Assembly: GCA_965248925.1 (NCBI GenBank)
Contig: CBDFLE010000006.1
Coordinates: 4,640,001 to 4,704,000, forward strand
DNA length: 64,000 nt
Source of the DNA: Candidatus Multivoradales bacterium
GTDB taxonomy: Bacteria; Acidobacteriota; Thermoanaerobaculia; Multivoradales; J023
Reading direction: 5' to 3'
Below, piece by piece: positions 15,273-43,245 of the stretch. The notes under the pieces are model-generated. The model was not told the DNA's origin, searched no databases, and saw only the letters and a program-made list of their open reading frames with translations. Position 1 is the first letter of the stretch, and each line of letters starts with the position of its first letter. The translations under genes were made by a program, and so were the position numbers.

Positions 15273-15491
15273 GTCCGTTAGGTAGGTCGCAAAACATTGC
15301 GCATTCTTGACAACAGCCTACCGAAGAACTCGCCGACCGCTGCAGCGCCGTTGAAGTCGCTCATCAGTGACAAATTTACGCTAAACATCGTATCAGACTC
15401 AATCCTGAAACTCTTGAGTTGATGACAGATGTCAACTTGCCGCCGCCCTGCTTGCTCTGATTCGGCATGAGCCGAGCGGCGGCGCGAAGCC

Positions 15492-25996: not shown

Positions 25997-27808
25997 TCAG
26001 GGAATCAGCAGCACTTGATTGGGATGGATCAGGTGCCCACCGAGGTGGTTGGCTCGCTTCAAGGAGCTGATGCTGGTGCCGTAGCGGCGTGCTATCGAGG
26101 CCAGGGTGTCTCCAGAGCGGACGGTGTGGCTGCGGCTGCCTGCTGCCGGGATAGTGAGCCGCTGGCCAATGCTGAGATGATTGCCACTGCGTAGGTTGTT
26201 GGCTTGGCGGATGGCGTTGACGGTGGTGCCATAGCGGCCGGCGATCAGGGTGAGGTTCTCGCCGCGACGGACGATATGCACTGCCGGATTAGCCTGCCGC
26301 GGTGCTGGCTTGCTGCTGGTGGCGGCTGCACGGCGGGTGGTAGAGCGGCCACGCGCCGGAATCAACAACACTTGGCCGATGCGGATGCGGTGCGCGCTGC
26401 GCAATCGATTGGCGCGTACCAGCGAGCTGACCCGAGTACCGAATTTGTCGGCGATGGCGCTCAGGCTGTCGCCGCGCCGCACCCGGTAGCGCAGACCCCG
26501 CTGGTGGTCTGAACGGCTGGCCGCGCCGAGCTGCTCGTAGGCCGCCTGCCAGCTCTCGCCACTGCCTTGGGGTACGCGCATCGGGTAACCCTTGGGGTAC
26601 AGCAGGTCGCCGCGCCAGATCTCTCTGTTGAGGGCTGGGTTGAGCTGCTGTAGCTGGTCGATCGTGGCGCCGGCCTGCGCCGCCAGGTCGGTCAGGGCGA
26701 CGTATTGATTGGGCACCAACTCATCGTAGGCCAGCCGCGCCCGGGGTTGGCTGTCGGGGAACAACTGGCGGCGGTGAGAGTAGGTCTCGGCGGCGGCGAG
26801 GAATTCGGCGTAAAAGTTGCGTGAAGCGAAGCCAAAGCTGCGCGACCGGTAGCGAGTGGCGATCTCGCCGAGGTCCTTGGTGCCCAATTTACTCACTGCT
26901 CGCGCCATGCCGCCGCGACCGTGATTGTAGGCGGTGATCGCCAGCGGCCAAGTTCCCAGGTTGGCGTAGTTCTGGCTCAGCAGGCTGGCCGCCGCCTCGG
27001 TGGCTCGCCAGGGGTCGTAGCGCTCGTCGACCTCCAAATTGAGCTTCATGAACTGCCGCGCGGTGGATGGCATGAACTGCCAGATGCCCCCCGCCGCGGC
27101 GGCTGAGCGCGCGGCAGTGTTGAACATCGATTCGACAAAAGGTAAGCGGGTCAGCTCGCTAGGGAGACCGCGGCGGCTGAAGATCTCCTCGATCGCCGGC
27201 ATGTACAGTCCGGAAATCTCGATCGCTTCGGCGAAACGGTCACTCAAGCAAGTTTGGGAGCGGACTCGCCTGGCCGCGGCGGCGAACTTGGTGCGATCGC
27301 CGGGAACGGCAGCGAACATCCGCGCGATGCGGCCCTGCTCGGCGGCATGGGTGGTGGAAGCACGGCCGGCCGCCAAGTTGCCGAGCAGGCGGGCGTAGAG
27401 TTCCCGCGCCGCCTTGACCCGCTGTTTGCGGTCCAGCTCCTTGCGCACCGCGCTGCGGCTACTGTCCCCTTCGATGTCGGAACAATCGACGACGGCGTAG
27501 ACCACTTGCAGATAAAGATGGTCGTGGATCAACACCTGCTCGCTCGAATAGCGGGTATAGACCTGGGTCCAGAAGTCGACGTTCGGCTGTAGCTTGTGGG
27601 GTAGGGGAAACAGGCCCCGGTCGAGAGTGCTCGCCAGAGTGATGTTGGCGGCATCGTCGGCCGTCGCGGCGGCCCCCGGCAGCAAAGCGAGGAGGCAGGC
27701 GGTGAGCAGAGTACCGAAGGGTGAAAGCCTGAGGAAGCGACTGAAAATCATCATAGTGCCAGCAAATTCTCGTTGCCGTGTCTCTCTCATTGAATCTCGG
27801 CGACTCAA
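25997..27808 (-). CDS. Lytic transglycosylase with three LysM domains (MltD-like); real start probably near 27754
   Basis: VES catalytic Glu, GIWQFM, AYNHG; three VRxGxxLxxIA LysM repeats. Confidence 0.92.
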   Translation of the reverse strand: MSRRDSMRETRQREFAGTMMIFSRFLRLSPFGTLLTACLLALLPGAAATADDAANITLASTLDRGLFPLPHKLQPNVDFWTQVYTRYSSEQVLIHDHLYLQVVYAVVDCSDIEGDSSRSAVRKELDRKQRVKAARELYARLLGNLAAGRASTTHAAEQGRIARMFAAVPGDRTKFAAAARRVRSQTCLSDRFAEAIEISGLYMPAIEEIFSRRGLPSELTRLPFVESMFNTAARSAAAAGGIWQFMPSTARQFMKLNLEVDERYDPWRATEAAASLLSQNYANLGTWPLAITAYNHGRGGMARAVSKLGTKDLGEIATRYRSRSFGFASRNFYAEFLAAAETYSHRRQLFPDSQPRARLAYDELVPNQYVALTDLAAQAGATIDQLQQLNPALNREIWRGDLLYPKGYPMRVPQGSGESWQAAYEQLGAASRSDHQRGLRYRVRRGDSLSAIADKFGTRVSSLVRANRLRSAHRIRIGQVLLIPARGRSTTRRAAATSSKPAPRQANPAVHIVRRGENLTLIAGRYGTTVNAIRQANNLRSGNHLSIGQRLTIPAAGSRSHTVRSGDTLASIARRYGTSISSLKRANHLGGHLIHPNQVLLIP

Positions 27809-28086
27809 GGCCGAGAAAGCGTCCTAGTGGACGGGGATGAACACCTCGCTGGCCAGGTCGGTGTCCTTTCATGCCTTGACATCATAGCCGAAACTGCTGC
27901 CCTGGGGCTGAGTTCTCTAGTGCTTGGAGTGTTGAGAGGACGATTGCCTTGCGTCTGCAGGTCGCGTAGCGTGGAACCCCTGAGCTGAGCCGAGTTGCCG
28001 CTTTGGCGGCGGCTTTTGTGGTGCAGTCGCAGCACTTTCACCGTACTTTTGCAGCACTTTCGGAGCGCTGCAATGAGGAGCTAAGC

Positions 28087-28950
28087 ATGCATGAGATCGC
28101 CAAGCGGGGCTACGTTCACCCCGAGGTTCTGGTTTCCACCGATTGGGTTGCCGAGCATTTGCAGGACCCGTCGGTGCGCCTGATCGAGTCGAACGAAGAT
28201 CCGCTGGTCTATCGCTCCGGCCACATCGCGGGCGCGGTCGAGGTCGACTGGACTCGCGATCTCAACGACCCGTTGCGTCGCGACTACCTCGATCGCGTCC
28301 GCTTCGAGAACTTGCTGCCGCAGATCGGCGTTGCTGCCGACACCACGGTGGTGTTCTATGGCGACAAGAACAATTGGTGGGCGACTTACGCCTTTTGGGT
28401 TTTCCGCCTCTTCGGCCATGACCGGGTGCGGATCATGGACGGAGGCCGCCTCAAGTGGCAGCTAGATGGGCGCCCGTTGACCCGTGAACAGAGCACCCAC
28501 CCGACGAGCGCCTACGTTGCTGCTGAGCGCGACGACCAGAGCATTCGTGCCTACCGCGATCAGGTGTTGGCCCACACCGAGGCTGGCCGGCCGATGATCG
28601 ACGTCCGCAGCCCCGAAGAGTTCAGTGGCGAGCGTCTGCATATGCCGGAGTATCCCAATGAGGGGGCCTTGCGCGGTGGCCACATTCCCGGAGCGCACAG
28701 CGTGCCCTGGGCACGAGCGGTGGTGCCGGAAGACGGTACTTTCAAGACCGCCGAGGACCTGCGGGCGATCTACCAGGACGAGAAGGGCTTGCAGCCGGAC
28801 GATGACGTGGTGGTCTACTGCCGGATCGGCGAGCGTTCCAGCCACACCTGGTTCGTGCTCACTTATCTGCTTGGCTACTCGCAGGTGCGCAACTACGACG
28901 GCTCGTGGACCGAGTGGGGCAATCTGGTCGGTGTGCCGATCGAGAGGTAG
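28087..28950 (+). CDS. Thiosulfate/3-mercaptopyruvate sulfurtransferase (rhodanese, SseA/CysA type)
   Basis: [30 protein letters not shown]. Confidence 0.95.
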
Positions 28951-28952
28951 GC

Positions 28953-29444
28953 ATGTCGGACTCCGCCGAGCCCTACCCAGAGCAGCTCGCCGAGCTGCTC
29001 GATGATTTGACTCTGCTAGCAGACCGCAACGACCGCATCGACTTTCTGATTTCGATTGCCGACCGGTTTCGCGAAGTGCCGGTGGTAGTTGCTCGGCGAC
29101 CGTTCGCCGAGGCCCACAAGGTACCGGCTTGCGAGTCCGATGCCTATGCCTGGGCGGTACCGCGGAGCGACGGCACTTTGGACTTCCACTTCGCAGTGGA
29201 GAACCCACAGGGGATTTCAGCGATGGCGATGGCGGCGATCCTCAGCCAAGAGGTTTCGGGCGCTCCCCTCGACCAAGTCGCGGTTCTCGACGCCGAGGTG
29301 GTCTATCAGATTTTCGGCCGCGAACTGTCGATGGGCAAGAGCATGGGGCTGATGGGCATGGTCTCGATGGTCGCCCACTTTGCCCGGCAGCGGCTTGGGG
29401 AAGGGCGCGAAGCATCGACCGCCGAGCCGGCGAGCGCCGGTTGA
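28953..29444 (+). CDS. sufE: SufE family sulfur acceptor
   Basis: KVPACES cysteine motif; directly follows rhodanese. Confidence 0.85.
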   Translation: MSDSAEPYPEQLAELLDDLTLLADRNDRIDFLISIADRFREVPVVVARRPFAEAHKVPACESDAYAWAVPRSDGTLDFHFAVENPQGISAMAMAAILSQEVSGAPLDQVAVLDAEVVYQIFGRELSMGKSMGLMGMVSMVAHFARQRLGEGREASTAEPASAG

Positions 29445-29549
29445 GAAGTTTCTCCCTTGAGCTGGGCAGAGATGGGCGGTATCTCGCAGCTCGCCGAGTG
29501 ATTCCTCCTCAGTGCATCCAAAGCCGCGCTGAGGGCGTATACTAATTCA

Positions 29550-30302
29550 ATGTCGACCGCCGCTCAGCGAGCCGCTCAGCCAACCCTGATGGTCTTTACC
29601 CTCGGGGCGGCTGGCGAGCGTCGCCGTCGGCCGCTGCTGCCGGAGCGCTTCGCCGGTGAGGAGCGTGCCCTGCGTCGAGCTTGCTTGGACTCGGTGCTAG
29701 CGGCCGGCCGTACTGCTGGCTGCCGCTTGCTGGTGGCATCGCCGCAGCACCTCGATCTGGGCGACGACGTCGAGTACCTCGATCAGCAGGGTGTTGGTTT
29801 CGGCGCTCGTCTCCGCAGTGCCATCGATCAAGCGGCCGGGCAGGTCGATGGGCCTTTGCTGGTGGTAGGTAGCGACGCTCCCAACCTCACCAGTAGTCAT
29901 CTGTGTCAGGCCCTCGAGCAGTTGCGGCGCGACCCCAAAGGGGTGGTGCTGGGGCCGGCCGAGGATGGCGGCTTCTACTTGCTGGCCGCCGACCAGCTGC
30001 GCTCCGAGCTGGCTGGCTTGCTGGCCGATGTACATTGGTGCCGGGCCGATACTCGACGCTCTCTGAACGCTATTCTGCGCCGCAGTGGGCACCGGCCAGT
30101 CTTGCTCGCCAGCTTGTGCGATCTTGATCATCGCACCGACCTGGAGTGTTGGCTGGCGAAGCGACCGGCGAGAGCGCTGCGGCGGTTGGCCGGCCTCTTG
30201 CTGCGTTTGCTGGCCAACTGGCGGCGCTCAGCCGTTGCCTCGTTGGGGGTTGTGCTGCCCCACCCGGCGACGGTCGCTAGCGGCCGCGCACCTCCTGCTT
30301 GA
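29550..30302 (+). CDS. DUF2064 / TIGR04282-like glycosyltransferase-fold protein
   Basis: QQGVGFGARL, VGSDAP, VLGPAEDGGFYL, DLD motifs. Confidence 0.82.
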   Translation: MSTAAQRAAQPTLMVFTLGAAGERRRRPLLPERFAGEERALRRACLDSVLAAGRTAGCRLLVASPQHLDLGDDVEYLDQQGVGFGARLRSAIDQAAGQVDGPLLVVGSDAPNLTSSHLCQALEQLRRDPKGVVLGPAEDGGFYLLAADQLRSELAGLLADVHWCRADTRRSLNAILRRSGHRPVLLASLCDLDHRTDLECWLAKRPARALRRLAGLLLRLLANWRRSAVASLGVVLPHPATVASGRAPPA

Positions 30303-30420
30303 CCCAGTCCTCCCCGACTCCCGTACTGACCGTACCGTCTTGACCGCAAAGAGCTGAATTGCCAGCGCTCTCTTGAGTGGTGGTGATTGGTGATTTTCTA
30401 AAAGATTGAGGAGAATTGTA

Positions 30421-31578
30421 GTGACCGCTACTAATGTCGAGCAGATTGTCAAAGAGCGCTACGCCAAGGGTGCGGAGCAGCAGGTGGCAGAACTCTGCTG
30501 TCCGGTGGACTACGACCCCAAGTATTTGAAAGTGATACCCGACGAAGTGCTCGAGCGCGACTATGGCTGCGGTGATCCCAGTCGTTACGTCAAGCCCGGC
30601 GAGACGGTGCTCGATCTGGGCAGCGGTACCGGTAAGATTTGCTTCATCGCCGCCCAGGTGGTGGGTGCTGAAGGCAAGGTCATCGGCATCGACATGACTG
30701 ACGAGATGTTGGCGGTGGCCGAGAGCGCGGCGCCGGTGGTGGCGGAGCGGTTGGGATTTGCCAACGTAGAGTTTCGTCGCGGTCGGATTCAAGATCTAGC
30801 GCTCGACTTGCGGCAGCTCGACGAGGCTTTGGCAGCCAGTCCGGTGACCTCCGCCGAGCAGCTCTTCGCCGCTGAGAGCCTGGCCGATCGGCTACGCCGA
30901 GAGCGGCCGATGGTGGCCACGGAATCGGTCGACGTTGTGGTTTCCAACTGTGTGCTCAACCTGGTCGAGAGTGGCCAGAAAGAGCGCATGTTCGCCGAGA
31001 TCCACCGGGTGCTCAAGCGGGGCGGACGGGCAGTGATTTCAGACATTGTCAGTGATGAGCTGGTGCCTCTCGAGATGCAGCAGGATCCGGAGCTGTGGAG
31101 CGGCTGTATTTCCGGCGCACTGACCGAAGACGGATTCTTGGCAGCCTTTGAGCAAGCTGGCTTCTATGGCATTCGCGTCCTCGAGCGCGAGACCACGCCC
31201 TGGCGTACGGTCGAGGGCTTGGAGTTTCGTTCCTTGGTGGTGGAAGCTTGGAAAGGTAAAGAAGGCGTTTGCCTGGAGCGCAACCAGGCGGTGATATATC
31301 GCGGACCATTCAGGGAGGTGCTCGACGACGATGGGCACCGAATGCTTCGCGGTCAGCGCTACGCGGTGTGTGAGAAGACCTTTCAGATTTATCAGAGCGG
31401 ACCCTACGATGAACACTTCGACTTCATCGAACCGCGGCAAGCCGTGCCGCTGGAGCTGGCGCAGCCGTTTGATTGCTCGCGCACGGTGCTGCGCCACCCA
31501 CGGGAGACCAAAGGCCAGGACTATGCCGCGACCTCCCAAGAGAGCGCTGATGGTTGCGATCCGGGCACATGCTGCTAA
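30421..31578 (+). CDS. ArsM/AS3MT-like SAM-dependent methyltransferase with C-terminal extension
   Basis: LCCP, YGCGDP, LDLGSGTG, SNCVLN, WSGCISGA and terminal CC; GAGGAG RBS before GTG. Confidence 0.85.
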   Translation: MTATNVEQIVKERYAKGAEQQVAELCCPVDYDPKYLKVIPDEVLERDYGCGDPSRYVKPGETVLDLGSGTGKICFIAAQVVGAEGKVIGIDMTDEMLAVAESAAPVVAERLGFANVEFRRGRIQDLALDLRQLDEALAASPVTSAEQLFAAESLADRLRRERPMVATESVDVVVSNCVLNLVESGQKERMFAEIHRVLKRGGRAVISDIVSDELVPLEMQQDPELWSGCISGALTEDGFLAAFEQAGFYGIRVLERETTPWRTVEGLEFRSLVVEAWKGKEGVCLERNQAVIYRGPFREVLDDDGHRMLRGQRYAVCEKTFQIYQSGPYDEHFDFIEPRQAVPLELAQPFDCSRTVLRHPRETKGQDYAATSQESADGCDPGTCC

Positions 31579-32438
31579 GTAGTCAGAGACACTGGTGGCT
31601 GATACTCGCTTGCTGGCTAGGCTCGGTGGCGGCAGCCTCGGCCGACCTCAGCGTGGTTGGTTCCTCGACCGTCAATCCGGTGGTTGCGGAAGCCGCCGAA
31701 TGGTTGCGGACCGAGCAGGGCCTGCGGATCACCGTCGACCCGGCTGGCGGCAGTTCCGGTGGCATCGCGGCGTTGGGCGACGGTCGTATTGATGTGGCAA
31801 TGTCCTCGCGGCCGTTGACCGCCAGCGATCGTCTGCGCTTTCCGCAAGGTCGGTTCGAGGCCCATCCGATCGGCAGCGATGCCGTTGCCTTGGTGGTCTC
31901 GCGCGATGTTTGGGAAAGCGGAGTGCGGTCGATCACCCGGCAGCAGATGCAAGCAATCTACGAGGGTCGAGTGCGGCGTTGGAGTGAGCTTGGCGGGCCC
32001 GATCGGCGCATTGCATTCTTTAACAAAGAGCCCGGTCGTGGTACCTGGGAGGTCTTTGTAAGCTGGTTGTATGGTGATCCGGCGGCGGCGCCCGCGGTCA
32101 GCTTTCCCGAGGTCGGAGCCAACGAAGAAGCGCGCACCAAGGTGGCTACCACCCGCGGCGGGCTGACTCAGCTGTCGGCCGCCTGGGCCGATGGCGAGCA
32201 AGTCTTCGCCTTGGCGATCAGCGATGGCCAGGGGCGGATGGTGCGGCCGAGCGCGACCGAGGTGGCTAGCGGTCGCTATCCGCTGTCGCGGCCGCTGCTG
32301 TTGATCACCGCCGGGCCACCCGGGGTGGAAGAGCGCCAACTGATCAATTTACTGCTCAGCGAACGAGGCCAAGAACTGGTGCTGCGGCATGGATACCTGC
32401 CCCTCGGGAGAGGAGGGGCGGCCAGCGGCGCGCCGTAG
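31569..32438 (+). CDS. pstS: PstS-like oxyanion ABC substrate-binding protein
   Basis: Signal peptide, GSSTV, GGSSGG, MSSR, YPLSRPL. Confidence 0.85.
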   Translation: MLLSSQRHWWLILACWLGSVAAASADLSVVGSSTVNPVVAEAAEWLRTEQGLRITVDPAGGSSGGIAALGDGRIDVAMSSRPLTASDRLRFPQGRFEAHPIGSDAVALVVSRDVWESGVRSITRQQMQAIYEGRVRRWSELGGPDRRIAFFNKEPGRGTWEVFVSWLYGDPAAAPAVSFPEVGANEEARTKVATTRGGLTQLSAAWADGEQVFALAISDGQGRMVRPSATEVASGRYPLSRPLLLITAGPPGVEERQLINLLLSERGQELVLRHGYLPLGRGGAASGAP

Positions 32439-32447
32439 AGTTCCACC

Positions 32448-33374
32448 ATGTTCGCGCCCCGCTCCGCGAGAGCTGTCGATTGGACCCGCGCCGCATGCTA
32501 CGCCGGTTGTGCCCTGGTGGCACTGGCTTTTGCTGCCTTGGTGGGCTTGCTGGTGTTCGAGAGCTTGCCGGTTTGGCGGCACGCGGGCGTCGGTTTCCTC
32601 AGCCGTCCCCGCTGGTTCTATCGCCAGGCGGAGTTTGGCGCCTCGGCGATGATCTATGGCACCGTAGCGGTGTCGGCGGTGGCCTTGCTGTTGGCGGCGC
32701 CGGTGGGGGTGTCGGCGGCAGTTTTTATTTCCGAGATCCTGCCGCGACGGTTGCGATTTCTGGTCAAAGCAGCGGTGGAGTTGCTCGCCGGTGTACCGTC
32801 GGTGGTCTACGGTTTGCTCGGGCTGCTGCTGTTGCGCGACTGGATCTACCGCCTGTTGGAACCTTGGGAACCGTTGTCGGGTGACACTTTGCTCACCGCG
32901 GGAGCCTTGCTGGCGGTGATGATCCTGCCCACTGTAATTACTCTGAGCGACGATGCTCTCGGCGGCGTTCCGGCCGCTCAGCGCCAAGCCGCTCGCGCAC
33001 TGGGTCTGAACCGTGCCGAGGTCGTGCTGGGAGTCAGCCTGCGCCAGGCTCTGCCGGGGGTAGCGGCCGCCGTCCTGTTGGCCCTGGGGCGAGCGGTTGG
33101 AGAGACCATCGCCATTTTCCTGGTGGTGGGCCGGCAAGACAATCAGTGGCCCGAGCGGCTGTTGTCATTGCGGCCACTGGGTGAGGCGGGGCAAACAATG
33201 ACCAGCAAGTTGGCGGGTTCAGAAACCTTTCTGGCCATGGGCGACCCGCTGCATTGGGCGGCGATGCTCGGCTTGGCGGCGCTGGTGCTGGTTTTCTCCG
33301 GTCTGCTCACTTGGGTAGGGGTCAGTCTAGCTGGCCTCGGCGAATCTCCCGGGCAGAGGTCGAGCAATGCGTAA
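32448..33374 (+). CDS. pstC: Phosphate ABC permease PstC
   Basis: ELLAGVPSVVYG, MILP, GRAVGET. Confidence 0.9.
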   Translation: MFAPRSARAVDWTRAACYAGCALVALAFAALVGLLVFESLPVWRHAGVGFLSRPRWFYRQAEFGASAMIYGTVAVSAVALLLAAPVGVSAAVFISEILPRRLRFLVKAAVELLAGVPSVVYGLLGLLLLRDWIYRLLEPWEPLSGDTLLTAGALLAVMILPTVITLSDDALGGVPAAQRQAARALGLNRAEVVLGVSLRQALPGVAAAVLLALGRAVGETIAIFLVVGRQDNQWPERLLSLRPLGEAGQTMTSKLAGSETFLAMGDPLHWAAMLGLAALVLVFSGLLTWVGVSLAGLGESPGQRSSNA

Positions 33375-34215
33375 ATTGCTCGACCGAGCTCTGACTTGGA
33401 GCACCGGGCTGTGTGCTGCTTTCGCCATGTTGGTGTTGTTAGGGATAGCCGGCAATCTGATCTGGCGTGGTTTGCCGGCTCTGAGTTGGCAGTTTCTCAG
33501 CCAGTCCACCACTCAGGCCGGAGCGGCTGGCGGGGTGTTCTACCAATTGGTGGGCACTTTGATTCTGTTGCTGACCGCGCTGTTTGTCTGCCTGCCGTTG
33601 GCGATTGCCTTGGGTCTCGGTGGAGGATTCTACCTCCGCGGCCGGCCACGACGTTGGTTGGTATTGGGGCTCTACACCGCCAACGGCGTGCCCTCGGTGG
33701 TCTATGGCATTTTCGGCTTGCTGATCTTTGTCCGTTGGCTAGACTGGGGAAAATCGTGGTGGGTCGGCGGCTTGCTGCTCGGTTGGATGATCTTGCCGAC
33801 GGTGGCCTTGGCGCTTTACGAACGGGTCGTTCGGCTGCCGGCTCAGTATCTGCACGCGGCCGCCGCCCTTGGGCTCGATCGTTCGCGCATCGCCTGGGCG
33901 GTAGTGCTGCCGCAGAGCCGTGCCGGTCTGCTTTCCGGGATCTTGTTGGGGTTGGCCCGAGCGGCGGGTGAGACCGCGCCGATCTTGTTCGCGGCGGCGG
34001 TGTTCTCCGGCGCCACCTGGCCGCGGGGTCTGACCGACAGTCCGGTTCTGGCGCTGCCGTACCATATTTTCGTACTCGCCCAAGACACCTACACGGCCGG
34101 TGCCGAAGCCCGTCTGTGGGCCACCGCGACGGTGCTTCTCGGCCTGGTTACCATGCTCGCATTGTTGGCGTTGCCGGCCCGCCTGGGGCTGCACGAGGAG
34201 GCTCACCATGGTTGA
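33367..34215 (+). CDS. pstA: Phosphate ABC permease PstA
   Basis: GVPSVVYG, ARAAGETAP. Confidence 0.9.
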   Translation: MRKLLDRALTWSTGLCAAFAMLVLLGIAGNLIWRGLPALSWQFLSQSTTQAGAAGGVFYQLVGTLILLLTALFVCLPLAIALGLGGGFYLRGRPRRWLVLGLYTANGVPSVVYGIFGLLIFVRWLDWGKSWWVGGLLLGWMILPTVALALYERVVRLPAQYLHAAAALGLDRSRIAWAVVLPQSRAGLLSGILLGLARAAGETAPILFAAAVFSGATWPRGLTDSPVLALPYHIFVLAQDTYTAGAEARLWATATVLLGLVTMLALLALPARLGLHEEAHHG

Positions 34216-35065
34216 GTCGCGGTCTTCTGCTGCTCAGCCGGCCGCGTCGCCGCTGCTCGAGGTGCGGGGATTGTCGGTCTGGGCTGGCGAGCGCCAGCTG
34301 TTGCGAGGGATTGATCTCGAGGTGATGCCAGGCCAGGTGCTTGGGGTGATCGGCCCCTCGGGCTGCGGCAAGACCACCTTTCTCCGCTGTCTCAACCGCC
34401 TGGTCGACTTGATCAGCGGTTTGCGGGTGAGTGGTGAGGTGCGCTTCGCGGGTCGCTCGATCTATGGCGCGGATTGCGATGCCGATGCCCTCCGCGCCGA
34501 AGTCGGCATGCTCTTTCAACAGCCGGCGGTATTCCCTGGTTCGATTGCTGAGAACGTCATCTTCGGCGCGCGGCGGATCTACCGCTTGGCGCGGACCGAG
34601 CAGCCGGCGCGGGTGGAGTGGGCGCTGCGCGAAGCGGGGCTGTGGGACGAAGTGGCGGATCGCCTGAGTGCGTCGGCGGTAACTCTTTCGGTGGGTCAGC
34701 AGCAGCGCCTTTGTCTTGCCCGGGCGCTGGCCATGAAACCACGTGTGCTACTGCTGGACGAGCCCACCAGTGCTTTGGATGAGCGGGCCAGCGCCCAGAT
34801 TGAGGAGTTGGTCTTACGGCTAGCCAAGCGGTTGACCTTGATCATGGTGACCCACGACCTGGCGCAGGCGCGCCGGGTGACCGATCAGCTGGCGCGCTTC
34901 GAGCTGCGCCAAGGGGTGGGTGAGATGGTCCAACAAGGCCCCACCCACCAGCTGCTGGCTCTGCCTCGGCGAGTCGACAGCCGGCGAGAAAATCTGCCAC
35001 CCATGGCCCGTTCGGCGGTGGGTTCGGGGCCGACTCTGAGCCCATTCCCTGAGGAGAACGACTGA
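34208..35065 (+). CDS. pstB: Phosphate ABC ATPase PstB
   Basis: GPSGCGKT, LSVGQQQR, LLDEPT, VTH. Confidence 0.9.
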   Translation: MVESRSSAAQPAASPLLEVRGLSVWAGERQLLRGIDLEVMPGQVLGVIGPSGCGKTTFLRCLNRLVDLISGLRVSGEVRFAGRSIYGADCDADALRAEVGMLFQQPAVFPGSIAENVIFGARRIYRLARTEQPARVEWALREAGLWDEVADRLSASAVTLSVGQQQRLCLARALAMKPRVLLLDEPTSALDERASAQIEELVLRLAKRLTLIMVTHDLAQARRVTDQLARFELRQGVGEMVQQGPTHQLLALPRRVDSRRENLPPMARSAVGSGPTLSPFPEEND

Positions 35066-36291
35066 TGTCTAGCAGCAACCACATAGCTATTTTGGGTACC
35101 GGCCCAACAGGTATCGAAGCTGCTTTGGCCGCTACCGATGCCGGCCTCTCTTTCACCCTATACGAGGCTGGCGAGCGGGTCGCCGAGGCGATCCAACAAT
35201 GGGGCCACGTACGGTTGTTCTCGCCCTGGGATCTCGATGTTTCGCCGCGTATGCGGCGCCATTTGCAAGCAGCCGGGCTGGACTGCCCGCTGGGTGATGC
35301 CTGTCCAAAGGGGGCCGAGCTAGTCGAGCAGGTGCTCAAACCGCTGTGTCGTTTGCCGAGTATCGCGCCGTACTTGAGGTTGTCGAGTCGGGTGGTGGCG
35401 ATTGGCCGTCGTGGTTTGCTCAAGCATGAGGAGATCTGTAGCGAGGAACGTGGCGGTCGACCTTTTCAGTTATTGGTACGGGACGCGCAGGGCAAGGAAA
35501 CCGCCGAGCAAGCCGCGCGGGTGCTCGATTGCAGCGGCACCTGGGGTCAGCCCAATCAGCTTGGGGATGGGGGAATTCCGGCCCTAGGCGAAACTGCACA
35601 TGGTGCCGCCATCGGTCGCCACGTGCCCGACATCGCCGGTGTACCCGAAGAGTGGGCTGGGCGGACAATCTTACTGATCGGCGCCGGCTATTCGGCCCAG
35701 ACCGCTGCTCGCGAGTTGGCGGCGGTGGCCGAGAAACACCCAGCTACCCAGTTGATCTGGGCCCTGCGCTCGGCGCCGTCGTTCCCCGTCGAGGACGACG
35801 ATCCCCTGCCAGAGCGGGCTGCCCTGAGCCGCGCGGCGGCGGCGCTGACGCAAGATCACCACCCGGCGGTTAAAGTTCTTGCCCCGGTCGTGGTCGAGGC
35901 GATCACCCGCCCGGACCAGCGTTTCTCAGTCACTCTGCGCCGGGCTAGCGGCGAGTCGCTCGAAGTCGTTGCCGACCGGGTCTTGGCGCTGACTGGTTAT
36001 GCCCCCGACGCATCGATTTACCGCCAGCTACAAGTCCACGAATGCTATGCCACCAGTGGACCGATCAAGCTAGCCGCGGCACTGCTTGGGTCCGGCGGCG
36101 GCGGCTGCCTGGCCCAGACCAGCCACGGTGTCGAAAGCCTGTTGAACCCCGAGCCCGGCTTCTTCATTCTTGGCAACAAATCTTACGGTCGCAACACCAC
36201 TTTTCTGATGCGAACCGGCTGGCAACAGGTCGAGGAGGTCTTCGCTTATCTGCTGTCGGAGGTAGAAAACACCGTCACCCACACCGCCTAA
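35065..36291 (+). CDS. FAD/NAD(P)-dependent oxidoreductase of the type often found in ars operons
   Basis: GTGPTG, WGHVRLFSPW, GAGYSA, KSYGRNTTFL; TGATG coupling to pstB. Confidence 0.8.
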   Translation: MSSSNHIAILGTGPTGIEAALAATDAGLSFTLYEAGERVAEAIQQWGHVRLFSPWDLDVSPRMRRHLQAAGLDCPLGDACPKGAELVEQVLKPLCRLPSIAPYLRLSSRVVAIGRRGLLKHEEICSEERGGRPFQLLVRDAQGKETAEQAARVLDCSGTWGQPNQLGDGGIPALGETAHGAAIGRHVPDIAGVPEEWAGRTILLIGAGYSAQTAARELAAVAEKHPATQLIWALRSAPSFPVEDDDPLPERAALSRAAAALTQDHHPAVKVLAPVVVEAITRPDQRFSVTLRRASGESLEVVADRVLALTGYAPDASIYRQLQVHECYATSGPIKLAAALLGSGGGGCLAQTSHGVESLLNPEPGFFILGNKSYGRNTTFLMRTGWQQVEEVFAYLLSEVENTVTHTA

Positions 36292-36509
36292 CTCGCTGAT
36301 TCTGTTCCCTTCGCGCGGCACCTCGATCCGGCGGCGCTCGCCGCCGTCTGCGAAGAGTTCAATGCGTTCGCTGCTCGGGCTCGTGGAGCCCAAGCCGCGG
36401 TGCGGCATCAATTTGCGGTAAGATGGCCCGCCGCTTTCGAAGCTACAATTCCGGCCGCTTCAGCACCGGCCTTGAGAAATTCAGTGACTCGCCAAGTCAG
36501 GAGAAGGGC

Positions 36510-38942
36510 ATGAGCTATGAGATCAAGAGTGTCGCGGTCATCGGCGCGGGAACCATGGGCGCGGCGATTGCCGCCCACTGCGCGAATGCCGGCTTGCCGG
36601 TGCTACTGCTCGACATCGTGCCGCGGCAGCTGACCGACAAGGAATCGGCCAAGGGCTTGACCCTCGACAGCCCGGCGGTGCGTAATCGCATTGTCAGCGA
36701 GGGTTTCCAGCGCATCGCCAAGCTCAAGCCGGCCTCGCTGATGAGCGCCAAGGGCAAGAAGTTGGTTCGCCTGGGCAACTTGGAAGACGATTTCGACCAG
36801 CTGGCGGGGGTTGATTGGATCGTCGAGGCGATTATCGAAAAACTGTCGATCAAGCGGTCGCTGGTCGAGCGCCTCGACGCGGTGATCGGCGAGCATGCCA
36901 TCGTCACCACCAACACCTCGGGGTTGCCGATTTCGCAGATCGTCGAGGGGCGCTCGGCGAGTTTCAAGAAACGCTTCTTTGGCACCCACTTCTTCAACCC
37001 GCCCCGCTACATGAAGCTGCTTGAGGTGATCCCCGGCGGCGCAGCCGACCCGGCGGCGGTGGATGCCATTGCCGAATTCGCCACCAGCCGCTTGGGCAAA
37101 GGGGTGGTGCGCTGCAAGGACACACCGAATTTCATCGGCAACCGGATTCTTTCGATCCACGGCTCGCAGGTGATCGACGCCGCTTTCGCTGATGGCTACA
37201 GCCTGGAAGAGGTCGACGCGGTCACCGGGCCGCTGATCGGACGGCCGAAGACTGGCACCTTCCGTCTCCAGGACCTGGTGGGCATCGATGTTTCGGCCTT
37301 CGTTGGCAAGAACCTGCATGGGCTGATTCCCGAGGACCCTTACCGTGATGTGCTGATCTCGCCGCGGTTGGAGAAGGTCATCGGCGGTCTGATCGAGCGC
37401 GGTCGGTTGGGCAACAAGACCCGCCAGGGCTTCTACAAGAAGGGCAAGGACGAGAACGGTAAGAGGGTCTTCTTGGTGCTTGATCCTGAGACATTCGACT
37501 ACCGTCTGCCGGCCAAGGTGCGTTTCGAGGCGGTTGGCGCGGTGCGCAAGATCGAAGATCTTGGCGAGCGCTTGCAGGCTCTGTTCGACGAGCGTTTTGC
37601 GGCCGATCGCGGGGCCCGTTTCGCTTGGCAGACGGTTGCCGGGTTGCTCGAGTATGCCGCCGTCACTGCGCAAGAGATTGCCTTCGATCTGGCGAGCATC
37701 GACAACGCCGTGCGCTGGGGCTTTGCCCACCAAGCCGGGCCTTTTGAGCTGTGGGATCAGCTCGGTGTCGAGGCGATCGCGGATCGACTGGAGGCCGAGG
37801 GCCGCCGGGTGGCGCCATGGGTGCGGGAGATGCTGGCTGCTGGCTGCAGCACTTTCTATCGTCGCCAGGATGGCCGGGTGACTGGCTACTACGACTGGGC
37901 TACCCAAGCCTATCGCGATCTCGAGCGGGATCCACGGCAGTTCACCGCCGCCGATTTGCACGCCGCCGGTGCCGAGCTTGCCGCCAACGAAAGTGCCTCG
38001 TTGCTGGATATGGGTGACGGGGTGCTGTTGGTCGAATTCCACGCCAAGATGAACGCCATTGACGATCAGCTGGTGGCGATGATCAATCAGGGCGTCGAGC
38101 TCCTTGAGGACGACCCGTGGCGGGCAATGGTAATCGGCAATGACGCCACCAACTTCTGCGTCGGCGCTAATCTGATGGGCGTTGGCCTGGCTGCCCAGGC
38201 GGGCAATTTCGATGCCGTCGACCAGGGTAGCCGAGCTTTGCAGGATGCCTTGATGGGGGTGCGCTACGCCGCTAAACCGGTAGTGGCGGCGGTACAGGGC
38301 ATGGCCTTGGGCGGCGGCGCCGAAATCGCCTTGGCGCCAGCTCGGATCGTCGCCAGCGCCGAGGCTTACTTCGGTCTGGTGGAGGCCGGTGTCGGCTTGG
38401 TGCCGGCCGGTGGCGGGATGAAGGAATTGGTTCGCCGTTCGATCTCGCAGGTGATGCGAATCGAACATGCCGATGCGCTGCCAACGGCGCAGAAAGTGCT
38501 CCAGGCGGTGGGCACGGCACAGGTCACCAGCAGTGCCGTCGAGGGTAAGGAGTGGGGCTTCCTCGCGCCGAGCGACAAGATCGTCATGCACCGTGGACAG
38601 CTATTGTGGGCGGCCCAGCAAGAGGCGTTGAAGATGGCCGCTGCCGGCTATCGGGCGCCGTCGCCAGCCAAGCTATACGGCGGCGGTCGCGACCTCGAAG
38701 CCGCCTTGCGCATGGTGGTGTGGTCGATGCAGCAGGCCGGTTGGGCGAGCGATCACGATCGGGCGATCGGCGACCACTTGGCCTACATCCTGGCCGGTGG
38801 TGATGCCAGCGGCGAAGGTTGGTTCGACGAGCAGCATTTCCTTGATCTCGAACGCCACGCTTTCGTCGAATTGCTGCAGACCGAGAAGACCCAGGCACGG
38901 ATCGCGCACATGCTCAAGACCGGTAAACCACTGCGCAACTAG
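36510..38942 (+). CDS. 3-hydroxyacyl-CoA dehydrogenase / enoyl-CoA hydratase fusion (FadN-like)
   Basis: GAGTMG, TNTSG, HFFNPPRYM; C-terminal crotonase FCVGAN and GGGAE. Confidence 0.93.
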   Translation: MSYEIKSVAVIGAGTMGAAIAAHCANAGLPVLLLDIVPRQLTDKESAKGLTLDSPAVRNRIVSEGFQRIAKLKPASLMSAKGKKLVRLGNLEDDFDQLAGVDWIVEAIIEKLSIKRSLVERLDAVIGEHAIVTTNTSGLPISQIVEGRSASFKKRFFGTHFFNPPRYMKLLEVIPGGAADPAAVDAIAEFATSRLGKGVVRCKDTPNFIGNRILSIHGSQVIDAAFADGYSLEEVDAVTGPLIGRPKTGTFRLQDLVGIDVSAFVGKNLHGLIPEDPYRDVLISPRLEKVIGGLIERGRLGNKTRQGFYKKGKDENGKRVFLVLDPETFDYRLPAKVRFEAVGAVRKIEDLGERLQALFDERFAADRGARFAWQTVAGLLEYAAVTAQEIAFDLASIDNAVRWGFAHQAGPFELWDQLGVEAIADRLEAEGRRVAPWVREMLAAGCSTFYRRQDGRVTGYYDWATQAYRDLERDPRQFTAADLHAAGAELAANESASLLDMGDGVLLVEFHAKMNAIDDQLVAMINQGVELLEDDPWRAMVIGNDATNFCVGANLMGVGLAAQAGNFDAVDQGSRALQDALMGVRYAAKPVVAAVQGMALGGGAEIALAPARIVASAEAYFGLVEAGVGLVPAGGGMKELVRRSISQVMRIEHADALPTAQKVLQAVGTAQVTSSAVEGKEWGFLAPSDKIVMHRGQLLWAAQQEALKMAAAGYRAPSPAKLYGGGRDLEAALRMVVWSMQQAGWASDHDRAIGDHLAYILAGGDASGEGWFDEQHFLDLERHAFVELLQTEKTQARIAHMLKTGKPLRN

Positions 38943-39007
38943 GTCTGCTTGAAGGCTGAAGAATCGATGATTTTTACCGCATACCATTCCTCCCGAGGAG
39001 GTCGAAG

Positions 39008-40186
39008 ATGAACCAAGCAGTGATTGTCAGCGCCACCCGCACCGCGGTGGGTCGGGCGAAGAAAGGAACTTTGGCCAACACCCGGCCGGAGCAGCTCGGT
39101 GCCGCCGCTGTCACCGAAGCCCTGCGCCGAGCCACGGGACTCGATGCGGCGGCGGTCGACGACGTCATCATAGGTTGTGCGATGCCCGAGGGTGAGCAGG
39201 GGCTCAATATGGCACGGGTGATTTCGCTGCGCGCCGGCTTGCCGGATTCGGTGACCGCGCAGACCATCAACCGCTTCTGCTCTTCCGGCCTACAGTCCAT
39301 TGCTTTGGGTGCGCAGCAGATCATGTCCGGCATGGGCGAGGTGATCGTCGCCGGCGGCACTGAGTCGATGAGCATGGTGCCGATGTCGGGCTATCATTTC
39401 CGCCCCGACCCGTGGATGGTCGAGAATCAGCCGGAAATCTACATCTCGATGGGCATCACCGCCGAGAACGTGGCCAAGAAATTCGGCATCAGCCGCGCCG
39501 CTGCCGATGAGTTCAGCGCCGGTTCGCACAGCAAGGCGCTAGCGGCCAATGGCAGTGACCGGTTTCGCGATGAGATCGTGCCGATCAAAGTCGAGCAAGT
39601 GCGAATCGAGCACGGCGAACGCCACTGCCAGACGGTGATTTTTGATACCGACGAGGGACCCCGTGCCGGTTCAACGCCAGAAGTGCTGGCCAAGCTGCGG
39701 CCGGCCTTCCATGCGCGCGGCACGGTGACCGCCGGCAACAGCTCGCAAATGTCCGATGGCGCCGCCGCGGTGGTGGTGATGTCGGCCGCCAAGGCCGAGC
39801 AGTTAGAGATCAAGCCGCTGGCCCGATTCCTGGGCTTTGCCACCGGTGGGGTGCCGCCTGAGCTTATGGGCGTCGGGCCGGTCGAGGCCATTCCCAAGGC
39901 GCTGCGCTATGCTGGTCTGAAGCTCGAAGACATCGATCTGATCGAACTCAACGAGGCTTTCGCCGCTCAGGCCCTGGCGGTGATTCAAGAGGCCGGCCTC
40001 GATGCGGAGAAGGTCAATGTCAACGGTGGCGCGGTCGCTCTAGGGCATCCGCTGGGCTGCACCGGAGCCAAGCTGACCACCCAGTTGATCTATGAGATGA
40101 AGCGCCGCGGTAGCCGCTACGGCATGGTTACCATGTGTATTGGCGGCGGCATGGGCGCGGCGGGGATCTTCGAGAACCTGGACTGA
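39008..40186 (+). CDS. fadA: Acetyl-CoA C-acyltransferase (thiolase)
   Basis: NRFCSSG, NEAFA, GHPLG, CIGGGMG. Confidence 0.95.
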
Positions 40187-41041: not shown

Positions 41042-41479
41042 ATGGCAGATAGCAAAGAAGGGCGCCGATTCACCGATCAAGGGGGCGACGTCGAGACGGT
41101 CATCGGTAAGGGATCCCACGTCGAGGGTGAGATCAGCGGCAGCACCTCAATCGAGGTCTGGGGTTCGGTCACCGGCACGGCGCGAATCGATGGCTTGTGC
41201 TGGGTGCGTGAGGGAGGCAAATTCAACGGCGACATCTTCGCCACTGGGGTAGTTGTCGAAGGCGAGGTGCAGGGCAAGATCACCGCCGCCGACAAAGTCG
41301 AGTTGCGCGCCTCCTGCCGCTCGCAGGGCAGTATCTCCGCCGGCTCCTTGGCGATCGCAGACGGCTCATTTTTCGAAGGCGAGATCCAGATGCGCGACTC
41401 GGTGAAGGGCGCGGGTGGCCAAAGCGCCAAGAAGAGCGGCTCGGTTAGCTTTGAGGAGAAGCGCCAGCCGGGGCAATAG
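41042..41479 (+). CDS. Bactofilin (polymer-forming cytoskeletal protein)
   Basis: TVIGKGSHVEGEI...G beta-helix repeats. Confidence 0.88.
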   Translation: MADSKEGRRFTDQGGDVETVIGKGSHVEGEISGSTSIEVWGSVTGTARIDGLCWVREGGKFNGDIFATGVVVEGEVQGKITAADKVELRASCRSQGSISAGSLAIADGSFFEGEIQMRDSVKGAGGQSAKKSGSVSFEEKRQPGQ

Positions 41480-42515
41480 GAGCCTCGGCCATCTGCGGTG
41501 TCTTGGACGCCGCCCCAGGGACCTCGCGCACTAGCTTTGGCACCAGGTAGCCAGAGGTGCTGGCCATCAGCTCGGCGTAGATTCGCTGCCCCTCCTGCGT
41601 TGGGACTTCGAAGTGGGTGGCACCGCGCACGCGGTCGAGCAAATGCAGGTAGTAGGGCTGGATACCGGTGGTGAACAATGCTGCGCCGAGCTCGGATAGG
41701 GTGGCGGCGGAGTCGTTGACGCCACGCAGCAGCACGGCTTGGTTGAGCAGCGTCACTCCCCGCTGGCGCAGACGGTGGCAGGCGGCGCGCACCGCGTCGT
41801 CGAGTTCGCGCGGGTGGTTGACATGCAGGACCACCACGGGGCGCAAGCGACTGCCGGTGAGCCAGTCGAGCAGCGCCGAGGTGACCCGCGAAGGCAAGAC
41901 GACGGGTAGTCGGGTGTGGATCCGTAAGCGCTGCAAGTGAGGGATCTCGGCGAGGCGTTCAGTCAGCTGCGCGAGCTTGGCATCGTTGAGTGACAGGGGG
42001 TCGCCGCCAGAGTAGATCACCTCTTCGATACTCGGCGTATTTCGTAACCAGTCGCAAGCTGGTTGCCACTGCTCCCCCCATGCTTGGTGGTCCTGATAAG
42101 GAAAGTGGCGCCTGAAGCAATAGCGACAATGCACGGCGCAGGCAGAAGTGGTCAGCAGCAGAGCCCGGCCGCGGTATTTGTGCAGCAGACCAGGCGCGGG
42201 CGCGGCGGCAGCCTCACCCACCGGATCCTCGCCAAACCCAGCCGCGGTGTCCAGCTCGGCACCACGGGGCAACACCTGCAAGAGCAGCGGGTCCTGAGGA
42301 TCGCCAGGCCGCATCCGGGCGATGAACGGGCGCGGCACGCGCAGCGGAAAACCAGCCTCTGAACCTGGCGGACAGTCGATCTGGCGGCGGTCGAGATCGA
42401 CCAGGCGCAGCAATTCGTCGAGGTCGCTGACCGCTGCACTGAGCTGGCGCTGCCAGGTGGGAGTCGGTTGCTGAGCCGCGGTGGTTGGCTGCCGGGTGGT
42501 GGTTTGGGCTATCAT
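41445..42515 (-). CDS. epmB: EF-P beta-lysylation lysine 2,3-aminomutase
   Basis: [14 protein letters not shown] radical SAM motif, SGGDP, PYYLH; divergent from efp. Confidence 0.93.
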
Positions 42516-42548
42516 GCGTTTCGAATTGTCCTCGCCTCAAAGCTACCT

Positions 42549-42617
42549 CCGTGCGGCACGGCGATCAAGCACCGTGCGGCACGGCAATCAAGCACCGTGC
42601 GGCACGGCAATCGAGCA
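42549..42617. repeat. Three tandem 23-bp repeats, each containing a dyad
   Basis: CCGTGCGGCACGGCRATCRAGCA x3; CCGTGC-G-GCACGG is an inverted repeat. Confidence 0.9.
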
Positions 42618-42675
42618 TGGCGGCGGGGCTTGCGGCGACCCGCTACCGGTTCCAACCCGAAGATACGGAGATTCC

Positions 42676-43245
42676 ATGGGCACCTACAGCACCAACCAGT
42701 TCAAGAGCGGGCTCAAGGTTATGCTCGATGGCGATCCTTGTTCGATCATCGAGAACGAGTTCGTCAAGCCCGGCAAGGGCCAGGCTTTTGTTCGCACCAA
42801 ATTTCGCAATCTGAAGAATGGCCGGGTGTTGGAGCGGACCTACAAGAACGCCGACTCGATCGAAGCCGCCGATGTGATGGAGACCGACATGCAGTATCTC
42901 TATTCCACCGGCGACACCTGGGTGTTCATGGATCCCAAGTCTTACGAGCAATATGAGGCCAGCGAGAGCGCCATGAGCGAGGCCAGGAATTGGCTCAAGG
43001 AAGAGGATATCTGCGCCGTGACCCTGTGGAACGGGGTGCCGATCTCGGTAACGACGGCGAATTTCGTTAACCTCAAAGTCACCCAGACCGATCCCGGCCT
43101 GAAAGGTGATACCTCCTCGGGCGGCAGCAAGCCCGCGACCTTGGAGACCGGCGCCACGATCCGGGTGCCTTTGTTCATCTCCGAGGGCGAGGTGCTCAGA
43201 GTCGACACCCGCAGCGGCGAGTATGTCTCGCGGGCCAAGAGCTGA
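42676..43245 (+). CDS. efp: Elongation factor P
   Basis: [28 protein letters not shown]. Confidence 0.97.

Follow-up and report, generated by a model that had tools for sequence, protein, structure and literature searches.

Why should a phosphate-type importer and an arsenic methyltransferase share one operon? Phosphate transporters let arsenate into cells, and bacteria are classically described as reducing it and then expelling it. The locus described here raises the question of whether uptake may instead be coupled to biotransformation. It lies in a stretch of 64,000 nucleotides from Candidatus Multivoradales bacterium (Acidobacteriota; assembly GCA_965248925.1, contig CBDFLE010000006.1, positions 4,640,001 to 4,704,000), hereafter the window. 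At positions 29550-36291 of its plus strand, seven genes run in one direction and encode a DUF2064 protein, an ArsM-like methyltransferase, a PstSCAB importer of the ATP-binding cassette (ABC) type and a flavoprotein. In our judgement, the chances are slightly better than even that these genes form one transcription unit coupling a phosphate-type oxyanion importer to arsenic methylation and alkylation, that is, to biotransformation and not to efflux.

The argument starts from the variety of forms in which the linkage is found. ArsM is joined to pst genes in three phyla, once to a second type of pst; DUF2064 is joined to pst; pst occurs with ArsS; and pst occurs with a set comprising a radical SAM protein, a metallophosphoesterase (MPE) and the flavoprotein. 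A linkage that is conserved and has been repeatedly re-formed argues for a functional coupling of the phosphate-type importer with arsenic methylation and alkylation. Moreover, since the genome has no detected Acr3 or ArsS and only a lone ArsC-like low-molecular-weight (LMW) phosphatase, uptake-coupled biotransformation is favoured. What carries this view is observed: the structure of the operon, the family assignments, the conservation of the linkage, and genome searches that found no Acr3, ArsS, PitA or second pst system. The original prediction, made from the letters of the window alone, had already preferred biosynthesis or scavenging to efflux resistance; the gene set does look like one for transformation or biosynthesis, and no Acr3 was found in the genome.

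Organization of the operon

Listing of open reading frames (ORFs) and family scans place the seven genes as follows.

29550-30302, plus strand: DUF2064 protein, 250 amino acids, nucleotide-diphospho-sugar-transferase-like and related to the TIGR04282 'arsenosugar glycosyltransferase' family
30421-31578, plus strand: putative ArsM-like As(III) methyltransferase dependent on S-adenosylmethionine (SAM), 385 amino acids from GTG 30421
31569-32438, plus strand: PstS-family periplasmic binding protein, 289 amino acids, with a signal peptide
32448-33374, plus strand: PstC permease, 308 amino acids
33367-34215, plus strand: PstA permease, 282 amino acids
34208-35065, plus strand: PstB ATPase, 285 amino acids from ATG 34208, with GAGGAGG ahead
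35065-36291, plus strand: FAD/NAD(P)-binding flavoprotein, 408 amino acids, with two dinucleotide-binding domains

The DUF2064 and ArsM genes are 118 bases apart (+118). From there on, the junctions are ArsM/PstS -10, PstS/PstC +9, PstC/PstA -8, PstA/PstB -8 and PstB/flavoprotein -1 (TGATG), before a gap of +131 bases to the next gene. These distances indicate that the six genes from ArsM to the flavoprotein are translationally coupled. The ArsM gene probably starts at GTG 30421, which has a GAGGAG Shine-Dalgarno sequence ahead of it; the listed ORF begins at TTG 30406. Thus, the predicted arrangement of seven co-oriented genes, tightly coupled from the methyltransferase to the flavoprotein, is borne out. 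So is the claim that certain genes are missing from the vicinity: the 70 window ORFs scanned (12 of 25997-40186 plus SufE, and 48 of the 56 called greedily elsewhere, the eight shortest, of 82-96 amino acids, being excluded) contain none that matches phoU, phoB, arsR, arsC, an efflux pump or a radical SAM gene of the cluster type. In the same scanned ORFs no molybdopterin oxidase, Acr3, ArsB-like protein or ArsC was detected, aioA not having been searched for genome-wide.

Scans for control elements gave little. Between 27800 and 36700, one promoter-like and ten terminator-like signals were counted and shuffled sequences give 1.2 and 8.0, so that there is no excess. No riboswitch or leader was found by Rfam in 27500-37000 at E <= 1, where a single microRNA family fell below threshold, and no common motif appeared in a by-eye comparison of the 130-base stretches 5′ of ArsM at 38 loci. 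Public sequencing runs holding this DNA number four, all from one study, with no RNA run among those listed.

Conservation of the linkage among relatives

The flavoprotein was used to find corresponding loci. Full-length orthologues with 50-61% identity are present in 29 of 40 relatives from the same family and order, and some match is present in 35 of 41 genomes, the window's own included. Stretches of 13 kb were fetched around the flavoprotein gene in 20 of these 29 relatives. Beside it stand a radical SAM gene (19/20), an MPE gene (19/20), ArsM (18/20) and DUF2064 (11/20), and in four of the 20 loci PstSCAB is inserted between ArsM and the flavoprotein (L011, L013, L015 and L017; L and G numbers are our handles for loci and genomes). 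The cluster conserved in the order is DUF2064, ArsM, variant radical SAM, MPE and flavoprotein.

The radical SAM protein of this cluster, of about 300 amino acids with a CNLACxHCF motif, is not ArsS: it scores 51-58 bits with TIGR04167, the ArsS model, whose cut-off is 300. It fits the Rv1681 family best, with 100-105 bits (cut-off 380). The MPE, of about 340 amino acids, matches Metallophos_2 (33.8 bits) and the PDB metallophosphoesterases 1nnw, 2gju and 3qfm. In the window's genome the radical SAM-MPE pair is found at G000:C6:2620033-2621984, about 2 Mb from the window, between genes of the homogentisate pathway and a ferrochelatase-like gene, the setting in which relatives usually keep the cluster as a whole. 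It follows that the genes for DUF2064, ArsM and the flavoprotein moved away from this ancestral location and are now combined with PstSCAB in one operon. G015, which belongs to a different genus, is split in the same way, with the operon on one contig and the radical SAM gene on another.

ArsS itself is absent among above-cut-off matches in the genome, the best score being the 57.7 bits (cut-off 300) of the variant radical SAM gene at C6:2621097-2621984; as a control, the same search exceeded the cut-off in one of 14 reference genomes. Thus, the ArsS partner that the prediction had brought to mind was not found, and a variant radical SAM partner does exist at a distance. The genome (96.9% complete, 6 contigs) gave no Acr3. 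The lone ArsC-like LMW phosphatase gene lies elsewhere in it and scores below cut-off.

PstC is above cut-off in all 41 sampled genomes. Besides the window's own genome, four carry pst inside the cluster (G015, G025, G029 and G036); each of these has at least one further pst system, which makes the cluster copy an accessory paralogue there. The pst loci fetched from relatives also include 20 more. In 15 of them the PstS is of another type and ArsM is lacking; in three no PstS passed the filter (L046 and L049 show PstB only, L050 nothing). The other two are instructive. In G011 (L040), a PstSCAB of the window's own type (PstS 70% identical) directly follows DUF2064, with ArsM, the radical SAM protein, MPE and flavoprotein on another contig. 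In G034 (L044), the pst that comes after DUF2064 and ArsM belongs to the other type (PstS 31% identical), which is an independent ArsM-pst join. A third pst type, with PstC/PstA-like domains in frames of 700-1500 amino acids, was seen in most genomes of the family (for instance G013:C97, G021:C28 and G001:C54); these long or fused permeases were not found in the window's genome.

The Pst clade across public genomes

A scan of one genome per species returned 97 relatives of the window's PstS, the best 80 of which were kept (52-67% identity) and their neighbours determined by tblastn and ORF clustering. Most of the 80 loci are labelled Verrucomicrobiota, Planctomycetota (Phycisphaerae) or Acidobacteriota, and Gemmatimonadetes, Binatia, Methylomirabilota and Limnocylindria appear as single records. 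The following neighbours were counted.

ArsR/SmtB regulator: 36/80 loci
ArsM, 55-73% identical to that of the window: 18/80 loci
two-domain rhodanese: 15/80 loci
true ArsS, 435 bits against a cut-off of 300: 9/80 loci
flavoprotein: 5/80 loci
radical SAM protein: 4/80 loci
MPE: 4/80 loci
DUF547: 4/80 loci
DUF2064: 3/80 loci
TIGR04283-like transferase: 2/80 loci

The ArsM-linked loci are labelled Acidobacteriota, Verrucomicrobiota and Planctomycetota. The link of ArsM to this kind of Pst is thus conserved well beyond the window's genome. If the count is restricted to the 40 loci flanked by no less than 6 kb on the upstream side and 9 kb on the downstream side, it gives 10 for ArsM, 19 for ArsR and 6 for ArsS.

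A PstS tree of 98 rows was obtained in a quick IQ-TREE run, with branch support from the Shimodaira-Hasegawa-like approximate likelihood ratio test (SH-aLRT) only and with poorly resolved branches in the basal grade. The window PstS falls in a distinct clade, split from the other pst type of the relatives with 100% SH-aLRT. The 14 rows nearest to it are all linked to ArsM or DUF2064; they represent 13 different sequences, because those of L017 and L052 are identical. Linkage is mixed in the remaining group of 72 rows (support 82).

Two other neighbours of the clade were recorded. A molybdopterin oxidoreductase, like formate dehydrogenase or thiosulfate reductase, adjoins it in L054, L094, L107 and L124, with 192 bits to the ArrA model, far below cut-off. 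The two-domain rhodanese of the above list (L067, L085, L116 and 12 others) is secreted, and in three loci its gene stands between pstS and pstC.

The regulators deserve attention as well. Known As(III)-sensing ArsR proteins use three-cysteine sites. Among 27 clustered ArsR proteins encoded near clade pst genes (27 loci among L055-L128), a cysteine in the N-terminal region is present in 26 and a C-terminal GCC in all. More generally, an ArsR/SmtB subfamily with an N-terminal cysteine and a C-terminal LD(L/F)GCC adjoins two pst types in Acidobacteriota, Verrucomicrobiota and Planctomycetota. This three-cysteine ArsR may be widely used to control phosphate uptake in response to arsenite or redox state. 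The window's own genome has only distant ArsR-family matches, none of them in the window and the nearest about 35 kb before it.

The methyltransferase, the DUF2064 protein and the flavoprotein

The methyltransferase has a class I SAM-binding fold (Methyltransf_31, 102.5 bits; Methyltransf_25, 62.2 bits) and matches the solved ArsM structures 4fr0/4kw7 with E = 5e-33. Its YGC (C50), SNC (C177) and GC (C229) motifs align residue for residue with Cyanidioschyzon ArsM (4kw7). The solved algal enzyme has four As(III)-binding cysteines. The upstream CC pair lies outside the printed 4kw7 alignment and is placed by position only. In 38 members of the ArsM subfamily, drawn from the fetched loci, C26, C50, C74, C177, C229, C284, C317 and C352 are invariant, C27 is present in 37, and most have a C-terminal CC...CC tail. 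The ArsM cysteine motifs pointed out in the original prediction are therefore real and conserved. All curated ArsM models score below cut-off, as follows: NF040538, 329.7/500; PRK11873, 203/263; NF038099, 111/400. The best NCBIfam model is NF040538, that of the arsinothricin-type ArsM. The protein, the sole ArsM-like one encoded in the genome, is very probably an As(III) methyltransferase, as its fold and cysteines suggest.

The DUF2064 protein matches PF09837 with 76.5 bits (cut-off 25.8) and TIGR04282 with 86.4 bits, below the cut-off of 134. Its match to the PDB entry 3cgx, a putative nucleotide-diphospho-sugar transferase, has E = 4e-7.

The flavoprotein had been called ars-type. This name is not supported: no family test gave an ars family match, and the nearest fold is that of YpdA/Bdr. 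Family models give weak Pyr_redox matches only (Pyr_redox_2, 43.3 bits), and a sequence search found no relative in the PDB. Scoring of 8000 candidates gave 3704 homologues at E <= 1e-10; the names of the 120 listed are all generic (FAD-dependent oxidoreductase, thioredoxin reductase, CzcO-like), and the ESM Atlas returned generic FAD/NAD(P) oxidoreductase clusters only. An AlphaFold model built from 21 orthologues (pLDDT 82, pTM 0.83) is closest to YpdA/Bdr 7a76 (TM 0.67 on the query, 0.82 on the target), then to ferredoxin-NADP reductases of the thioredoxin reductase (TrxR) type, N-hydroxylases and flavin-containing monooxygenases. With 7a76 and 7apr together, the best overall matches, TM values are 0.65-0.67 (query) and 0.79-0.82 (target) over two Rossmann-type domains. 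However, the protein scores 37.7 bits with TIGR04018 (cut-off 339.9), shares 16-19% identity with YpdA/Bdr, is about 80 residues longer and has an invariant cysteine pair of its own. These residues, C327 and C348, are invariant among the aligned orthologues and both lie in a low-confidence segment of the model (324-355). From its modelled fold, the flavoprotein would be an NAD(P)H-dependent reductase.

The Pst system and its binding pocket

PstC is recognized above cut-off (TIGR02138, 215.5 bits; cut-off 196.45). PstS matches PBP_like_2 (111.5 bits) and scores 150.5 bits with TIGR02136, below 206.6; PstA scores 166.4 bits with TIGR00974, below 193.45; and PstB scores 275.8 bits with TIGR00972, below 343.2. 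The window PstB is nevertheless the best of 72 matching places in the genome (122 candidates scored), the runner-up having 166.5 bits. The only PhoU-domain gene of the genome (C6:54265-54918) lies beside a Na/Pi cotransporter gene (the two spanning C6:53046-54918), about 4.6 Mb away; there is none in the window.

The window PstS matches solved PstS proteins with E = 6e-18. Its NKEPGRGT segment aligns with sREdGSGT (4gd5), tREaSSGT (1twy) and nRpseSGT (9l8j), which means that the canonical R-x-x-x-S-G-T anion motif is replaced by K...GRGT. GSST, GGSSGG, an acidic residue (within GRIDVAMSSR) and the T of SGT are retained; we take the roles of these pocket residues to be those of E. coli PstS. 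The pocket motif FFNKEPGRGTWEVF occurs in 57 of the 59 sequences of one comparison and in nearly all clade rows of another. The acidic residue varies within the clade. The window's group keeps Asp or Glu at the position aligned with the phosphate-discriminating Asp; in the derived group of 72 rows (L054-L130) it is mostly replaced by Gln (GLVQIGMSSK), sometimes by His or Glu, and SR is replaced by SK.

A possible pathway and competing explanations

The chemical steps that we infer from these families, together with their cargo, regulation and product, would be the following. PstSCAB would import phosphate along with the arsenate that PstS-type proteins cannot fully exclude. Arsenate would then be reduced, candidates being the lone LMW-phosphatase-type ArsC-like protein encoded elsewhere in the genome, or thiols. 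ArsM would methylate As(III) with SAM. The Bdr/YpdA-like flavoprotein may supply reducing power derived from NAD(P)H, either by re-reducing a cysteine disulfide of ArsM or by reducing pentavalent methylated intermediates. Lastly, by analogy with ArsS and arsenosugars, the variant radical SAM protein and MPE encoded about 2 Mb away might, with DUF2064, convert methylated arsenic to a carbon-bonded product.

Several observations weigh against such a coupling. The operon itself has neither an arsenate reductase nor a regulator. The window PstSCAB is the only PstS, PstC, PstA or PstB-like system found in the genome, where PitA was not found either; hence, this Pst probably serves ordinary phosphate nutrition too, the Na/Pi cotransporter being the sole alternative. 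The K...GR.T variant of the pocket is shared by the relatives' other pst type (VVNKAEGRSTLELF), mostly without ArsM, and both the acidic residue and the SR of ordinary PstS are present in the window protein. Unusual as it is, the pocket therefore gives no specific pointer to arsenate. As this is the only pst of the genome and the canonical residues are kept, phosphate appears the more likely physiological cargo here. Across the clade, 22 of the 80 PstS loci have no arsenic-type neighbour, and related genomes are non-independent samples. Seven loci of the derived group were scanned closely; L081 has an alkaline phosphatase nearby, L092 two OprO/P-type porins and L127 a TonB receptor, a context of phosphate scavenging. 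As to the three-cysteine ArsR, it also stands beside the other pst type in six relatives' loci (L032, L033, L039, L041, L043 and L048), so that its role in these phyla may be to regulate pst in general. The original prediction had named, as grounds against itself, a pst operon that is the genome's only one and Pho-regulated, a linkage that is not conserved and a methyltransferase that leaves As(III) unmethylated. The operon does prove to be the only one; the linkage proves to be conserved.

How, then, can the association be explained otherwise? One proposal is that the importer is dedicated to arsenate or methylarsenate and feeds the deliberate synthesis of an arsenic metabolite, the Pst clade having been recruited as in biosynthetic gene clusters. 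The change from R...SGT to K...GRGT with respect to all solved PstS aligned would suit this proposal, as would the extra paralogue in all four other sampled genomes with a cluster pst, the operon-level links to ArsM, and to either ArsS or the variant radical SAM protein, in three phyla, and the occurrence of an ABC oxyanion transporter in the arseno-organic cluster of Streptomyces (PMC4943196). It is, however, unlikely, though far from negligible, given that the pocket variant is also found in copies with no ArsM link, that the pst is the sole one of the window's genome and that derived members of the clade neighbour alkaline phosphatase and phosphate porins. A bolder version, to which we give a little less credit, would make the NKEPGRGT clade an arsenate-preferring or arsenate-admitting importer for an undescribed carbon-arsenic pathway (ArsM, radical SAM protein, MPE, DUF2064 and Bdr-like flavoprotein), with an arsenic metabolite as product and the three-cysteine ArsR as an arsenite switch for uptake. 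This metabolite, made in Acidobacteriota, Verrucomicrobiota and Planctomycetota, might for example resemble an arsenosugar or serve as a lipid head group that spares phosphorus. Conversely, the Pst may be phosphate-selective and co-induced with arsenic genes when arsenate competes for uptake, ArsM detoxifying what leaks in. A role of this kind has been suggested for pst genes that lie within the arsenic islands of arsenite-oxidising bacteria. Pst/pho genes are a known part of such islands, and in Agrobacterium tumefaciens pstS1 and phoU are described as being under ArsR control (PMC3834237). The three-cysteine ArsR next to 36 of the 80 loci and the canonical acidic residue of the window PstS agree with it. 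It seems rather improbable here: no ArsR is found in or near the operon (the nearest ArsR-family match being the one about 35 kb before the window), phoU and phoBR are missing, in contrast to the arsenic islands, and the co-travel of variant radical SAM, MPE and DUF2064 genes is left unexplained. It should be noted that this explanation largely overlaps with coupled uptake and biotransformation, from which it differs only in the signal that drives expression.

Two further explanations would deny the coupling or the arsenic. A rearrangement in a plastic part of the chromosome might have placed a housekeeping pst within an arsenic cluster, co-transcription being incidental. The order of the cluster does vary, with pst inside it, beside DUF2064 only or missing from it; transposase and RHS genes abound in the first 18 kb of the window, which also hold a group II intron; and this pst is the sole one of the genome. 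Nevertheless, ArsM-pst joins have arisen repeatedly in different arrangements and in three phyla, one of them with the second pst type, the 14 nearest rows of the tree (13 different sequences) are all linked, and start and stop codons overlap, which makes mere chance quite improbable. It is more doubtful still, to the point of being hardly credible, that the methyltransferase and its partners act on antimony, selenium, tellurium or a thiol metabolite, with another oxyanion imported by the pump. That all ArsM family models stay below cut-off, that rhodanese and SufE genes lie directly upstream and that rhodaneses occur at 15 of the 80 loci could be read in this sense. Against it, the complete set of As(III)-binding cysteines known from solved ArsM enzymes is kept, nine loci pair a true ArsS (435 bits) with an ArsM of the same subfamily (55-72% identical), and the upstream rhodanese/SufE genes are not conserved beside the cluster in the 20 relatives' loci. 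Coupling of a phosphate-type importer to arsenic methylation and alkylation thus remains the reading that we prefer.

What is gained from this operon and from dozens of related loci, in three abundant and poorly studied phyla of soil and freshwater, is the sight of uptake and methylation/alkylation in one unit. If the coupling is functional, these loci would identify organisms and genes that make methylated or sugar-type arsenic in soils and waters, and would connect the biotransformation of arsenic with the scavenging of phosphorus at the level of the operon. They would also offer a natural experiment on how the K...GRGT pocket of PstS handles phosphate versus arsenate, as well as a handle on the uncharacterised trio of radical SAM protein, phosphoesterase and flavoprotein that apparently replaces ArsS.

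Surroundings of the operon in the window

Upstream of the operon lie genes for a rhodanese (28003-28950) and SufE (28953-29444), and downstream lie FadB-like and thiolase genes. All four are taken as borders because none adjoins the cluster in the 20 relatives' loci; membership of either pair in the unit was rejected on this ground. The upstream rhodanese looks cytoplasmic, and its position with SufE is not conserved.

The sole radical SAM gene of the window (41445-42515, minus strand) encodes EpmB (459.5 bits; cut-off 369.3). It was considered as the missing radical SAM partner and rejected in view of this score and of the adjacent EpmA. The two genes form a divergent pair for beta-lysylation of elongation factor P at 41445-44212, EpmB being read from the minus strand and EpmA (396 bits) from the plus strand.

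The stretch 93-18348 is dense in mobile elements: DDE transposases (93-1523 and 11888-13279), a group II intron reverse transcriptase/maturase (2782-4332), a Mu-type transposase (4731-6551) and a Transposase_29 protein (9185-11578). Three ORFs with RHS repeats (1640-2830, 13624-15297 and 15922-18348) resemble fragments of interrupted genes. Two likely toxin-antitoxin pairs consist of a nucleotidyltransferase (Polbeta/NTP_transf_2) with a HepT-like RNase (44270-45141) and of a small ORF with a PIN-domain protein (53611-54323). Finally, DUF3179 is split at 54354-55403 (minus strand) into two successive ORFs of 111 amino acids (profile positions 4-61) and 230 amino acids (74-292), which may reflect a frameshifted gene or an assembly error.

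Comparison with known systems

To our knowledge, a link between arsenic biotransformation and phosphorus scavenging has been discussed for marine microbes, and there is no genetic demonstration of it in the groups considered here. A full-text literature search, which did not extend to subscription journals and supplements, found no paper on an arsM-pst operon or on the variant cluster of radical SAM protein, MPE and flavoprotein. The ArsM/ArsS pair is already known; within the bounds of that search, the joining of ArsM to a distinct Pst clade across phyla was not found.

The closest parallel is the ArsM/ArsS arsenosugar pathway, reportedly known from work on Synechocystis. Like it, the window's genome has ArsM, a radical SAM partner and a DUF2064/TIGR04282-like protein. 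Moreover, in nine of the 80 loci of this Pst clade, true ArsS stands with an ArsM of the window's subfamily (55-72% identical), and a TIGR04283-like transferase (169 bits, below the cut-off of 182) and DUF547 are found in some of the nine. The difference is that ArsS is not found here: a variant radical SAM protein travels with MPE and a flavoprotein resembling Bdr, and the operon incorporates PstSCAB. With the canonical PstSCAB-PhoU system the operon shares the S-C-A-B order, a PstC above cut-off, the fold family of PstS and most of its ligand motifs. It differs by PstS, PstA and PstB scores below cut-offs, by K...GRGT in place of R...SGT and by a PhoU that is not adjacent.

Radical SAM chemistry is combined with ArsM in the arsinothricin cluster arsQML, in which ArsL is the radical SAM protein (bioRxiv 10.1101/2024.02.01.577332). 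The window ArsM has the arsinothricin-type model as its top NCBIfam match and a radical SAM partner exists, but the score is 329.7 bits against a cut-off of 500. The names ArsL and ArsQ do not appear among the best 25 families listed for the radical SAM protein, no dedicated search for either having been made. The arseno-organic cluster of Streptomyces is described as containing an ABC transporter of oxyanion type, annotated as a phosphonate transporter; its chemistry involves a mutase, a decarboxylase and a polyketide synthase instead of ArsM and a radical SAM protein (PMC4943196).

Entry of arsenate through Pst and the presence of pst beside arsenic genes are themselves already documented (PMC3834237, PMC6205960). 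In the arsenic islands of arsenite oxidisers, pst/pho genes are a common component, and pstS1 and phoU of Agrobacterium tumefaciens are reported to be ArsR-regulated (PMC3834237). The physical linkage of pst to arsenic genes, and the ArsR-family genes at 36 of the 80 clade loci, recall these islands. However, the islands carry aioBA, efflux-type ars operons and phoU/phoBR, and the word arsM is absent from that paper (PMC3834237). The operon described here, from other phyla and with no adjacent phoU, brings together in overlapping genes a Pst importer, ArsM and partners of the biosynthesis type.

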